Below, piece by piece: positions 44,009 to 49,705 of a DNA stretch of 64,000 nt (position 1 is the first letter of the stretch; every line of letters starts with the position of its first letter). A program made the translations under genes and the position numbers. The notes below the pieces were generated by a model, which saw nothing but the letters and a program-made list of their open reading frames with translations, was not told the origin of the DNA and searched no databases. The stretch is from Pseudomonadota bacterium (lineage in GTDB: Bacteria > Myxococcota_A > UBA796 > UBA9615), in contig JAAESI010000117.1 of assembly GCA_024229515.1 (NCBI GenBank), positions 22,419 to 86,418 on the forward strand, in the 5' to 3' direction.

Positions 44009-47000
44009 CTAGTTGCGGCGGCGTCGGAGGCCGACGAGGCCCAGGAGCAGCAGGCCGAGACCGGCCGACTCACCACCGGCCATGTTCTCCTGGCAGGAGC
44101 AGTCGGTGGTCACCGGGTCGGTGTTGGCGTCGGGGCCGCAGTCATCCAGCGTGCCGCTGCCGTCGATTTCGCCGTCGCAGTTGTTGTCGATGGCGTCGGC
44201 ACAGTCCTCGGCCACGGCGGGGCTGACCCAGCCGTTGGCGTCGTCGCAGTCGCCTTCCTGCTCGGTGAAGCCGTCGCCGTCGTCGTCGAACGCTTCGGTG
44301 TTCTCGTCGACGATGCCGTCGCAGTCGTTGTCGAGGCCGTCGGCCTCTTCGGCCTCCTCGGCACCGGGGTGCACGTCCGGATCGGCGTCGTCGCAGTCGC
44401 CTTCTTCCTCGGAGAAGCCGTCGCCGTCGTCGTCGGTGGCGTCGCCGCCCTCGTCCACGAGGCCGTCGCAGTCATCGTCCATGCCGTTGTCCTGCTCTTC
44501 GTCGGCGGCGGGGTTCACGTCCTCGTTGTTGTCGTTGCAGTCGCCGTCTTCCTCGGAGAAGCCGTCGCCGTCGTCGTCGGTGCCGGGCAGGCCCTCGTCG
44601 ATGATGCCGTCGCAGTCGTTGTCGAGGCCGTCCTGGATCTCCGGGGCGCCGGGGTGGACCGCCGGGTTCTCCTCGTCGCAGTCGCCGCCCTCGGCGGTGT
44701 AGCCGTCCTCGTCTTCGTCGAGGATGCCGCCGTCGACCGTGCCGTCGCAGTCATCGTCGATGCCGTTGTCCATGATCTCTTCGGCGTCGGGGTTGATCTC
44801 CGGGTTGGTGTCGTCGCAGTCACCCTCGTTCTCGGCGAGGCCGTCACCGTCCGTGTCGTCGCAGAAGGTGTTCTCGTCGATGTTCCCGTCGCAGTTGTTG
44901 TCGACGAAGTCGCAGAACTCGACCGCGGCCGGGTTGATGAACTCGTCGTCGTCGTTGCAGTCGCCGCCGTTCTCGGTGAAGCCGTCGCCGTCGTCGTCCG
45001 AGTCCGGGCCGCCCTCGTCCACGAGCCCGTCGCAGTCGTCGTCGATGCCGTTGTCGACGATCTCCGTCGCGCCGGGGTTCACGTCCGGGTTGGCGTCGTC
45101 GCAGTCGCCGACCGCCTCGGAGTAGCCGTCGCCGTCGTCGTCGAAGCAGAGGCTGTTGTCGTCGACGATGCCGTTGCAGTCCTGGTCGATCCCGTCGCAC
45201 ACCTCGATGGCGCCGGGGAAGACCGTCGCGTCGGCGTCGTCGCAGTCGCCCGCGTCGCCGGTGAAGCCGTCGCCGTCGAAGTCGACGCAGCCGGTGCCCT
45301 CGTCGACCTGGCCGTTGCAGTCATCGTCGTAGCCGTTGCAGACCTCGATCGCGAGGGGGTTCACGGCCGCGTTGTTGTCGTTGCAGTCGGGGCCGCCGGG
45401 GCCGCCGTCGTAGCCGTCCAGGTCGATGTCGGTGAGGTCCGCTCCGGAGCAGTCCTCGTCGATGCCGTTGTACGGAATGTCGATCGCGTCGGGGTTGATC
45501 AGCGGGTCCGTGTCGTCGCAGTCGTCACCGCCGGCGGCCGCGTCGGAGAAGCCGTCGCCGTCCAGGTCGGTGCTGTCGATGCCGTCGCAGTCCTGATCGA
45601 TGCCGTCGTACGGGATCTCGGGCGCACCTGGGTAGATCGTCGGATCGAAGTCGTTGCAGTCGTCGCCGCCGACGACCGTGCTGTCGTAGCCGTCGCCGTC
45701 CACGTCGACCCAGTCGGAGCCGTCGCAGTCCTGATCGATGGAGTCGTACGGGATCTCGGGGGCGCCGGGGTAGGTCAGCGGGTTCAGGTCGTTGCAGTCG
45801 GGGCCACCGACGCAAGCGCAGTCGTAGCCGTCGCCGTCCAGATCCACCAGATCGGAGCCGTTGCAGTCCTGATCGATGGCGTCGTAGGGCACCTCGGGGG
45901 CGCCGGGGTAGATGGTCGGGTCGAGGTCGTTGCAGTCACCGCCGCAGGCCGAAACGCCGTCGAAGTCGAGGTCGCTGTCCTCGTCGATGTCGCCGTCGCA
46001 GTCGTTGTCGATGCCGTCGCACAGCTCGGGCGCGCCGGGGTAGATGAAGATGACCGTGTCGTCGCAGTCGGAGCACCACGCCCAGCCGTCGCCGTCGCCG
46101 TCGAGGCTCGGGTCCTCGTCGATGAGGCCGTTGCAGTCGTTGTCCAGCTCGTCGCAGATCTCGGGAGCACCCGGGTAGACGGTGTCGTTCTCGTCGTCGC
46201 AGTCCCCGTCGCAGTTCTCGAAGCCGTCCAGGTCGTTGTCGCCGCAGGGCACCTCGACCTCGAACTCGAACACACCGGCCTCCCAGGCGAGGCAGTCGTA
46301 GTTGTTCGACGGCTCCGCAGTGGCCAGCTGCACCGAGGTCATGCCGACGGTGGTGTAGCTCATGACGTTGTAGGTATGGTCGTCCCACATGTTCCCGTCG
46401 CCCCACGAGCCGTCGCCGCCGATGTAGACGTCGCCGCTGTCGATCGTGGCGCTGCCGAAGCGGGTGCTGCCGTCCGCCGCGGCTTGGCCGTCACCGACGA
46501 TGTAGTGGGCCCGGGACACGATCGGGGCGCTGTCGACGGAGAAGCCGGAGAAGGTGATGAGGTCGTAGGTGTTGTCCGACCGGATGTTCCCGTCGTAGAT
46601 GGTGACGTGGCTCTCGTAGTCGGTGTTCGCGCCCTCGTAGATGACGACGAGCGAGGCGCCCTGGCCGTCCGTGTTGTTGCTGATCCACTGGATGCCGGAG
46701 ACGGAGTAGGTGCCGTTGCCCGGGTCCGACAAGTACTCGGTGACGTCGGCGCGGTAGCTGCGGTTGTTGCCGCCGTAGCTGCCCCAGCAGGTGTTCGAGT
46801 GGGTTCCGATCTCCGTGCCCGTGACCGAGTAGCCGTTGAAGACGGCGGTGTTGTCGCCGCTGCCGCCGATGGTCATCCAGTACAGGATCGCCGTGTTGAC
46901 GGCGGCGTTCGTGGGGATGCCGGCGATGGTGATGTAGCCCGTCGCGGGTCCGCCGCGGCGCTGGGCGAGTCCGACACCTTCAGTGACCACGCCGCCGCCT

Positions 47001-47116
47001 TCGACGATCGTGTTCAAGTGCAGACCGAGGGTCCCGTTTCCATCCGCGACCGCCGACGTGGGCAGGAGGAGCAGCGAGGCACAGAGCACAGCAATTCGGG
47101 CACAACTTGTCGTCAT
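44009..47116 (-). CDS. Large secreted protein with about 15 tandem MopE-like Cys/Asp-rich (putative metal-binding) repeats and a MYXO-CTERM-like sorting tail
   Basis: Start at ATG 47116 ([24 protein letters not shown] signal peptide); N-terminal 300-aa domain; repeated units D.DGDG....GGDCDD.DP.V.PGA.E.CDG.DNDCDG; C-terminus [31 protein letters not shown]. Confidence 0.75.
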
Positions 47117-48734: not shown

Positions 48735-49705
48735 CCCGGCTGTTGATCGCGCTGTTCGTCGCTGGCCTGCTGGCCGGATGCCCATCCGAACCGGAGGAGG
48801 AGCGGCCCCCGATCGTCGCCTTCGAGCCGGCCGTGGTGGAGCTCGGCCAATGGACCGTCACCACCGACGGGCTGCCTGAACCGGTCACGGTGCGGCTGGC
48901 CAACCGCGGCTTCGGCCGCGTCTCCGTCACCACCGTCGGCATCGCGGACGACAGGATCGTCACGACGCCGTCGGCGGAACTGCCCGCCGAGGTCGAGCCG
49001 GGCGCGTGGCTGACCATCACCGTCGCGTACGCCGCGAGCCCGACCGGCCCCGTGGACATCAAGACGACGCTGGACGCGACCGTCCGGGCGGTCGGCGACG
49101 CGTTCGACCAGTTCGCCGTGGCGTCCGCGGACGTGCGGGTGATCCTGCTGTGCGACGCCGACGGTGACGGCTACACCGGCGCCGGCTGCGCGGGGCCTGA
49201 CTGCGACGACGAGGACGTCTTCCACAACCCCGCCTCCGAGGAACTCTGCAACGGGCTCGACGATGACTGCAACGGCGTCGCGGACGCCGACGGGGAGGAA
49301 GCCGACGACGACGGCGATGGGCACCTCAGCTGCGCCGAGTGCGACGACGGGGACCCCACCGTGAACCCCGACGCGACCGAGCTGTGCGATGGCGGCGACA
49401 CGGACTGCAACCCCGCGACCTTCTTCGAGGACGGTGAGATCGACTACGACTCGGACGGCTTCCTCAGCTGCGAGGAGTGCGACGACGAGGACCACGACAA
49501 CTCCCCCGACGGCACGGAGATCTGCGACGGCCAGGACAACGACTGCGACGGGGAGCTGTCGGACGCGGAGATCGATGGCGACGGCGACGGGCAGAGCGAG
49601 TGCGACGGCGACTGCGACGACGCCAACCCGGACCGCAACCCCTTCGCCCCGGAGACCGCGGGCGACGGGCTCGACAGCAACTGCAACGGCAACGACGACG
49701 ACTAG
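48731..49705 (+). CDS. Lipoprotein with about 4 MopE-like Cys/Asp-rich repeats
   Basis: GGAGAGAG RBS then ATG 48731; lipobox LLAGC; same repeat type as the 44009..47116 protein (CDDEDVFHNPASEELCNGLDDDCNG etc.). Confidence 0.7.
   Translation: MTRLLIALFVAGLLAGCPSEPEEERPPIVAFEPAVVELGQWTVTTDGLPEPVTVRLANRGFGRVSVTTVGIADDRIVTTPSAELPAEVEPGAWLTITVAYAASPTGPVDIKTTLDATVRAVGDAFDQFAVASADVRVILLCDADGDGYTGAGCAGPDCDDEDVFHNPASEELCNGLDDDCNGVADADGEEADDDGDGHLSCAECDDGDPTVNPDATELCDGGDTDCNPATFFEDGEIDYDSDGFLSCEECDDEDHDNSPDGTEICDGQDNDCDGELSDAEIDGDGDGQSECDGDCDDANPDRNPFAPETAGDGLDSNCNGNDDD

Follow-up and report, generated by a model that had tools for sequence, protein, structure and literature searches.

At positions 44009 to 49705 of the stretch analyzed here (64,000 bp of contig JAAESI010000117.1, assembly GCA_024229515.1, hereafter the window), a gene for a cytoplasmic protein of 504 amino acids (aa) lies between two genes for secreted proteins built from the same Cys- and Asp-rich repeat. 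This arrangement raises two questions, namely whether the middle protein is a radical S-adenosylmethionine (SAM) enzyme and whether it acts on the proteins at its sides. The original prediction, made from the sequence alone, had assumed resemblance to class B radical SAM enzymes and had proposed either a maturation system for the repeat proteins or a metal homeostasis module. After our analysis, the middle gene probably encodes a genuine, previously undescribed radical SAM enzyme of a variant type, with the repeat-protein genes as accessory neighbors.

Since the G+C content of the window is about 69%, most of its long open reading frames (ORFs) are shadows; real genes were picked by codon-position GC (GC3 frame analysis) together with their translations. 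Four genes were supported in this region, namely 44009..47200 (-), 47220..48734 (+), 48719..49705 (+), and 49712..51517 (-). The second of these starts with GTG and encodes the 504-aa enzyme, which is assigned to the cytoplasm because it has no signal peptide.

Profile searches against Radical_SAM and B12-binding models, one of the checks put forward with the original prediction, yielded scores below the Pfam thresholds for both families, whereas structure prediction revealed a class-B-like radical SAM fold, so that membership in the superfamily rests on fold and motifs. No NCBIfam model matched the enzyme, and its single sequence found no matches among PDB chains; a profile of the enzyme revealed weak PDB matches to the CxxC region of HydE, to MgmA (9ccb), and to TsrM, and some homologues carry precomputed PF04055 matches. 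The AlphaFold2 (AF2) model, calculated from an alignment of 28 homologues, reached a predicted local distance difference test (pLDDT) score of 92.1 and a predicted template modelling (pTM) score of 0.90, and Foldseek matched it to OxsB (E 2e-14) and TokK (E 1e-10), all of the best structural matches being to radical SAM enzymes of the cobalamin type or to proteins of related architecture. Both the radical SAM superfamily's (beta/alpha) TIM barrel and an N-terminal Rossmann-type cobalamin domain are found in the model, the predicted layout being that of class B, in which a Rossmann/cobalamin-type domain at the N-terminus is followed by a partial radical SAM barrel of the (beta/alpha)6 type and by a helical lid at the C-terminus. 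The assumed resemblance to class B enzymes is thus borne out by the fold match and by an invariant, though atypical, three-Cys motif.

This motif, C179-x43-C223-x2-C226, spans an expanded cluster-binding loop (47754..47897, +) that was delimited by alignment and by an AF2 block with pLDDT values of 84–96. The original prediction had rightly seen an atypical split motif but had given its spacing as x40 instead of x43. Neither the close family nor 28 sequences down to 19% identity showed any variation at C179, C223, and C226, and no further Cys is conserved in the alignments of the enzyme. In the model, C179 is placed after beta1 (172–174), the stretch C223-T-F-C226 displays the usual aromatic residue before the last Cys, and the 43-residue insert between C179 and C223 is confidently modelled with a helix at 206–217. 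We read this region as a predicted canonical site for the cluster into which a very large loop has been inserted. A spacing of 25–45 residues, as found across the clade, is to our knowledge the longest between the first two cluster Cys, compared with 14 in QueE. The latter enzyme (7-carboxy-7-deazaguanine synthase), in which a canonical cluster site with the motif CX14CX2C is extended between the first and second Cys, provides a precedent for an extended cluster loop (PMC4389238). In contrast to QueE, the insert described here is three times longer, helix-containing, and family-wide, and the two proteins are unrelated in fold and function. New in this case, on an otherwise known architecture, are the record-length, family-wide insertion in the cluster loop and the unannotated clade that carries it.

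The wide alignment of the 28 sequences (at least 19% identity) revealed further invariant residues, so that the complete set comprises G84, R105, P151, C179, C223, F225, C226, Q245, G319, E321, F323, L328, and K333, with E262 nearly invariant. Two of the conserved stretches, LQTE262xP after beta2 and G319-F-E321-x-F323 on beta4, show little or no variation and are located where GGE- and GxES-type SAM contacts lie in other enzymes. By analogy of position, not by structural superposition, QTE262 (GGE-like) and G319-F-E321 (GxES-like) are therefore candidate SAM contacts.

The N-terminal Rossmann-type domain (47220..47624, +) resembles a cobalamin domain and displays conserved residues at G83-G84 at the end of beta4 (79–83), at S62-I-F after beta3, in the QCELEHRHQAPH loop after beta1, and at G102/R105. 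Cobalamin domains of class B enzymes are characterized by a Gly-Gly on beta4 (dimethylbenzimidazole pocket), an SxL-type motif, and a Gly-Glu at the start of alpha5 (PMC9204698). The Gly-Gly on beta4 is found here as well, with G84 invariant and G83 conserved to at least 90% in the wide alignment, and together with S62-I-F it resembles the Gly-Gly and SxL motifs that base-off cobalamin domains display (PMC9204698). A Gly-Glu motif is missing, since G102-P-G-R105 without any Glu stands at the start of alpha5, which argues against cobalamin use. The organism itself uses cobalamin, as the window encodes a B12-dependent methylmalonyl-CoA mutase (33281..34948). AprD4 possesses a B12-like domain without cobalamin, so that the fold alone is no proof of cobalamin use. 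Based on the Gly-Gly and SxL-type motifs and the host mutase on one side and the missing Gly-Glu and the case of AprD4 on the other, cobalamin use by the enzyme is plausible.

Compared with the class B enzymes CysS, MgmA, TsrM, TokK, and OxsB, the protein revealed a sequence identity of just 11–18% and replaces their motif CX3CX2C (CX4CX2C in OxsB) with CX43CX2C; the Gly-Glu motif and Pfam scores above threshold are missing, and cobalamin binding is a prediction. AprD4, a radical SAM diol dehydratase, differs in its canonical cluster motif and its aminoglycoside substrate. The methylthiotransferases MiaB, RimO, and MtaB are set apart by the three-Cys auxiliary-cluster motif of their N-terminal domain, of which only C8 is partly conserved here, and by a TRAM domain, which the enzyme lacks. 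With anSME, QhpD, and PapB, the likeness is one of functional analogy, in case the enzyme acts as a maturase: enzymes of this type modify proteins in the cytoplasm that are exported later, and Cys-Asp/Glu thioether formation belongs to their chemistry. They are, however, SPASM/twitch proteins with auxiliary clusters, whereas Pfam and NCBIfam searches of the enzyme at E<=0.1 detected neither a SPASM/twitch auxiliary-cluster domain nor an RRE-type peptide-binding domain, and its C-terminal part contains no conserved Cys.

For cluster binding, SAM cleavage, cobalamin use, and substrate, sequence and model together suggest the following course. C179, C223, and C226 would hold a [4Fe-4S] cluster, with the structured insert of 43 residues splitting the usual CX3CX2C loop as an extreme form of the extended loop of QueE. 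SAM would be bound via QTE262, G319-F-E321, and K333 and reductively cleaved, and the resulting 5'-deoxyadenosyl radical would abstract a hydrogen from the substrate, which may be one that all members of the lineage share. In its N-terminal domain, the enzyme probably binds cobalamin or a different cofactor that serves a second step of the reaction, e.g., C-methylation, methyl transfer being the commonest outcome in class B.

Regarding its distribution, the enzyme gene is conserved in a marine Myxococcota-like lineage, where it is usually monocistronic. The close family comprises 73 clusters at 42% identity or more, all from marine-type metagenome-assembled genomes labelled as Myxococcota, Deltaproteobacteria, or (mis-binned) Rickettsiales; among GTDB species representatives, just 14 possess it, and every named copy is annotated as "hypothetical protein". 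An exhaustive HMMER search revealed 922 representatives with E<=1e-3, of which 46 reached E<=1e-30, and the enzyme belongs to a sizeable, unnamed clade of the class-B-like group. Remote relatives retain C-x25-45-C-x2-C, with the Cys motif lost in relative P0112, and their matches to NCBIfam were weak and below threshold (rSAM_ocin_1, ArsL, and CUAEP-tail families). Many of them are fusions of 700–1500 aa with a second canonical radical SAM/SPASM domain, TPR repeats, a methyltransferase, or a DUF483-like GYPxCC region. Four such proteins of 1000–1500 aa, unnamed in their sources (P0123, P0129, P0139, and P0164), combine the expanded-loop domain with one or two canonical radical SAM/SPASM(twitch) domains and a DUF483-like GYP(R/D)CC region. 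Small ORFs downstream of remote relatives were uninformative. Two loci with relatives of 36–37% identity (L037, 8001..14320; L031, 411..7259) harbor a divergent gene for a MAM/FlgD_ig secreted protein, the enzyme gene, and a convergent GT2-TPR gene, followed by genes for a QhpD-like radical SAM protein, a 96-aa QhpC-like Cys-rich peptide (PF08992), and a beta-propeller, with a Trp-halogenase/FAD monooxygenase-like gene nearby. Judging by its predicted gene products, this neighborhood is a quinohemoprotein-amine-dehydrogenase-like maturation cluster.

On the window, the enzyme gene is flanked by the only two ORFs in its 64 kb that bear repeats of the PF11617 (MopE) type. The larger one (44009..47116, -), divergent from the enzyme gene and not co-directional with it, encodes a giant secreted protein of 1035 aa. 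Its ORF as called reaches up to a TTG at 47200, but the true start is likely the ATG at 47116, since the N-termini of orthologues agree with it and a GGAG ribosome-binding site precedes it. A plus-strand ORF of 1335 aa (43238..47245) was rejected as a shadow antisense to this gene; it shows the wrong codon-position GC pattern, and its runs of V/A/G/D arise from the GAC/GGC-rich repeats. The giant protein consists of a signal peptide ending before DG, a head domain of about 265 aa (46247..47044, -), 15 Cys/Asp-rich repeats of about 47 aa (44141..46240, -), and a C-terminal sorting-type tail (44012..44140, -). Thus, the description as a secreted protein with about 15 such repeats was correct (15 PF11617 copies; E 1.8e-136, 444 bits against a cut-off of 27). 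The tail indeed displays the three-part layout of a MYXO-CTERM signal, namely a Cys motif, a hydrophobic helix, and an Arg cluster (RRRRN), which makes "MYXO-CTERM-like" an apt term, but membership in that family is not borne out, as model TIGR03901 scored 13.9 bits with a cut-off of 20. The head domain is termed DUF3344 (PF11824)-like on account of relatives with precomputed PF11824 matches or DUF3344 names; in a Pfam scan, the copy of the window itself was not matched. Among orthologues of the giant, the head domain is 70–84% identical, and 73% identity was found across 999 aa. A homologue search with the head domain returned two close orthologues versus at least eight present in the collected loci, for which composition filtering is suspected.

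Downstream of the enzyme gene, the smaller repeat gene (48731..49705, +) encodes a lipoprotein of 324 aa with the lipobox LLAG|C, an N-terminal domain of about 130 aa, and four PF11617 repeats (49154..49702; E 1.6e-27, 95.8 bits against a cut-off of 27). Its ORF as called begins at 48719, the true start being likely the ATG at 48731. The repeats are paralogous to those of the giant (40–45% identity), in agreement with the earlier view of a lipoprotein carrying four of the same repeats. Translational coupling of the two genes through ATGA had been proposed as well, and this overlap was confirmed (48731..48734, +), with the ATG at 48731–48733, the TGA of the enzyme gene at 48732–48734, and a GGAG upstream.

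To see how far this neighborhood is conserved, 43 loci with related enzyme genes (numbers with the prefix L) were collected and scored by tblastn and with a repeat hidden Markov model built from the window; after removal of duplicates, 29 were informative for the upstream side. A DUF3344-headed orthologue of the giant lies divergently upstream in eight of them (window, L040, L001, L002, L005, L009, L015, and L016), and a ninth case is implied by P0020 and P0221, which stand on one contig. Another two (L011 with a Cys-rich head; L014 with another head and an htpX-like gene in between) harbor a different MopE-repeat protein, while in the remaining 19 the D-Ala-D-Ala ligase gene ddl directly adjoins the enzyme gene without any repeat gene. 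In these 19 loci, the enzyme keeps all invariant residues, and no MopE gene occurs within about 8–10 kb on the adjacent side; the enzyme is thus kept without adjacent repeat genes. The lipoprotein gene follows in an operon in four loci (window, L040, L001, and L002), with ATGA junctions in the window and L040, TGA-G-ATG in L001, and a gap of 17 nt in L002. The most widely conserved divergent neighbor is ddl (window: 42077..43000, -), which together with a gene for a double-FHA-domain protein (window: 41175..42023, -) is found on the divergent side in nearly all loci and is one gene away where it is not directly adjacent. Both belong to the housekeeping block in which the enzyme gene is located: accC, a HEAT-repeat gene, the FHA gene, and ddl stand to one side of it, and a hexapeptide/NTP-transferase-like gene stands to the opposite side; the latter (about 305 aa, GMPPB_C-like) is convergent downstream in at least 14 loci and missing from the window. 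In about one third of the lineages, the giant separates ddl from the enzyme gene; the MopE-repeat genes are accessory, lineage-variable neighbors, and the three genes therefore do not make up an obligatory system.

Nevertheless, the association is not random, since few MopE genes stand apart from the enzyme gene: in about 630 kb of window and loci, only two MopE ORFs do not adjoin the enzyme gene (L012 and L042, each about 6 kb off). In the same loci, the giant (70–84% identity) is better conserved than the enzyme (47–62%). The upstream protein of L014 shares 52% identity over 749 aa with the giant, and their repeat regions are orthologous; since, in addition, the lipoprotein repeats are paralogous to those of the giant, the MopE adjacencies may go back to one or two ancestral events rather than to many independent ones. 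The head domains of the upstream proteins differ by lineage, being DUF3344-like in the window, alpha/beta-looking in L014 (5820..8696), and Cys-rich in L011 (2..886). Unrelated heads at the same upstream position suggest that they have been swapped on a conserved repeat stalk.

What the repeats themselves bind bears on the idea of a metal function. In each repeat, a DxDxDG loop, C14, P23, D33, and C36 are invariant, i.e., there is one Cys pair per repeat, and the array consists of 26% Asp and 6% Cys. An AF2 model of a two-repeat unit (pLDDT 86) displays no regular secondary structure and found no significant Foldseek match in the PDB, and the repeat profile revealed a single significant match among solved structures, namely residues 3–45 of MopE* (E 9e-8), followed by weaker PDB matches to calmodulin, calcineurin B, and AOAH calcium loops. 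In MopE*/CorA, copper is held by two His and a kynurenine, and both proteins also bind Ca2+ (PMC3912023). MopE* harbors a single such motif with its copper site elsewhere, whereas here the module of DxDxDG loop and Cys pair stands in tandem, 15- and 4-fold in the flanking proteins. Based on these loops, the single invariant Cys pair, and the different nature of the MopE*/CorA copper site, the repeats are more likely calcium- and disulfide-stabilized surface modules than copper or thiolate metal sites. A role in copper or metal homeostasis, in which the repeats bind copper or another transition metal via Cys/Asp and the enzyme serves metal handling, is suggested by the name of the Pfam family (Cu-binding_MopE / putative metal-binding motif) and by the high content of Asp and Cys, but it appears highly improbable: the only structural match leads to a part of MopE* other than its His/His/kynurenine site, Ca2+ and a disulfide fit the invariant residues better, and no metal transporter, chaperone, metal-sensing regulator, or riboswitch was found adjacent to the trio. 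The metal homeostasis module thus found no support. Just as improbable is an inactive radical-SAM-like pseudoenzyme with a structural or regulatory role, in which the split motif would be the remnant of a lost cluster site. Though the low Pfam scores and the loss of the Cys motif in P0112 would fit, the three Cys and the residues of SAM-binding type do not vary even in sequences of only 19% identity, the model gives the insert a confident structure, and in QueE an extended loop goes together with activity (PMC4389238).

A genuine radical SAM enzyme with accessory MopE neighbors is thus the reading we consider probable, though several observations weigh against one or the other part of it. The Pfam scores are below threshold, with 23.2 bits for Radical_SAM (PF04055, E 8.9e-5, threshold 29.5), where the match begins only at model position 10 beyond the first Cys, and 13.5 bits for B12-binding (threshold 32.1). 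MopE ORFs are strongly concentrated beside the enzyme gene, the upstream protein bears three different head domains, and the tight enzyme-lipoprotein operon is kept in four lineages. In a neighbor-joining tree of the enzyme, the giant-bearing loci are scattered in three separate clades, which fits an ancestral order ddl-giant-enzyme followed by repeated loss. The concentration of MopE ORFs, the three head domains, and the operon, together with the better conservation of the giant, speak for a dedicated maturase that would modify the repeats of giant and lipoprotein in the cytoplasm before Sec/Lol export, as anSME acts on sulfatases before their export, with C-methylation, Cys-Asp thioether cross-linking, and methylthiolation as candidate chemistries. 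We regard this as possible but unlikely. Not only does the enzyme persist without MopE genes in 19 of the 29 loci, but the adjacency may also reflect the one or two ancestral events mentioned above, SPASM/twitch and RRE domains were not detected, and remote relatives adjoin unrelated genes (MAM/FlgD_ig protein, GT2-TPR, and QhpD/QhpC-like cluster). Furthermore, PF11617 proteins are widespread in Myxococcota, unlike the close enzyme family with its 14 GTDB species. A literature search revealed no paper connecting radical SAM enzymes with MopE repeats. From the proposed maturation system, the non-random association and the operon in four loci remain, but with only 10 of the 29 loci the neighborhood is not generally conserved. 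Since enzyme and lipoprotein genes share an operon in the clade of the window, where they would be co-expressed, it is a live secondary possibility for this clade that repeat proteins are modified in the cytoplasm ahead of their export. A bolder version, which seems rather doubtful to us, would make the enzyme the founder of protein-modifying cobalamin-type radical SAM maturases for the DxDxDG/Cys repeats of large Myxococcota surface proteins, introducing a modification unseen so far (e.g., C-methylation or Cys-Asp cross-links) before export; the conserved insert of 25–45 residues would then dock the substrate, and the clade of about 920 clusters, including the fusions of 1000–1500 aa with second radical SAM/SPASM domains, would be a large, hidden family of enzymes maturing proteins or peptides. 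Quite unlikely, finally, is an enzyme whose substrate, a small molecule or an envelope precursor, is connected with the most conserved neighbors of its gene, ddl and the NTP-transferase/hexapeptide protein, with the MopE genes unrelated to it. The directly adjacent, divergent ddl in 19 loci (one gene away in the others), the convergent GMPPB_C-like gene directly downstream in at least 14, and the small-molecule substrates of many class B enzymes, e.g., CysS, TokK, OxsB, and AprD4, would agree with such a function. Neither neighbor is co-directional with the enzyme gene, however, and operon evidence is therefore missing; accC, HEAT-repeat, and FHA genes in the same block resemble plain lineage synteny, and the window has no hexapeptide gene.

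Radical SAM enzymes are usually recognized by CX3CX2C and by Pfam thresholds, and the enzyme as well as about 920 related cluster representatives escape both. If it is active, the sequence definition of the superfamily would have to be widened, and an unannotated clade would be exposed. Should it act on the neighboring repeat proteins, abundant surface proteins of Myxococcota would carry a post-translational modification of a new kind, and the enzyme would be one of the few of class B type to mature large secreted proteins.

Apart from the coding sequences, the divergent intergenic region of 103 bp between giant and enzyme genes (47117..47219) was searched for regulatory elements. No Rfam family matched in the window, and thus there is no cobalamin or SAM riboswitch. 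A consensus scan for promoters and terminators yielded matches no more frequent than chance, with no sigma-70 consensus in the intergenic region, and upstream regions aligned by eye revealed no common palindrome pointing to a metal regulator. About 7 nt before the GTG start of the enzyme gene (47195..47219), a TAGGGT box was found; a TAGG(C/G)T-like box about 7 nt 5' of the enzyme start, with no clear Shine-Dalgarno sequence, also occurs in L001, L003, L005, L007, L008, L009, and L020. It may be the -10 element of a leaderless or near-leaderless transcript.

The surroundings of the trio differ from those of related loci in several genes. Between giant gene and ddl, the window harbors an orphan gene (43091..43960, -) for a 289-aa protein with an N-terminal hydrophobic segment and no Pfam match, which has no homologue in related loci, where ddl directly succeeds the giant. 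Convergent with the lipoprotein gene and only 6 bp apart from it, a 601-aa regulator with GAF, OmpR-type winged helix, and BTAD/SARP domains is encoded (49712..51517, -); it sits between the lipoprotein gene and the nar cluster and is missing from related loci except the identical contig L018. Genes for a hybrid histidine kinase/receiver (38180..39388, -) and a receiver-LuxR-type response regulator (40212..41171, +) are inserted between the HEAT-repeat and FHA genes in the window, L001, and L040, but are missing in most related loci. Further upstream, the catalytic subunit of methylmalonyl-CoA mutase (75% identical to a PF01642 protein of L041) is followed by a biotin-lipoyl protein (33281..35457, -), adjoined by a biotin carboxylase gene (35457..37055). 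On the other side, a respiratory nitrate reductase cluster (51710..63061, -) encodes a NarG-like molybdopterin subunit (58442..62062), a NarH-like subunit (56847..58400), NarI (55355..56179), two NarK-like transporters of the MFS type, one of which (51710..53674) carries a C-terminal hemerythrin domain, and a cytochrome c (62090..63061). This cluster suggests a facultatively anaerobic lifestyle, which would suit an oxygen-sensitive radical SAM enzyme.

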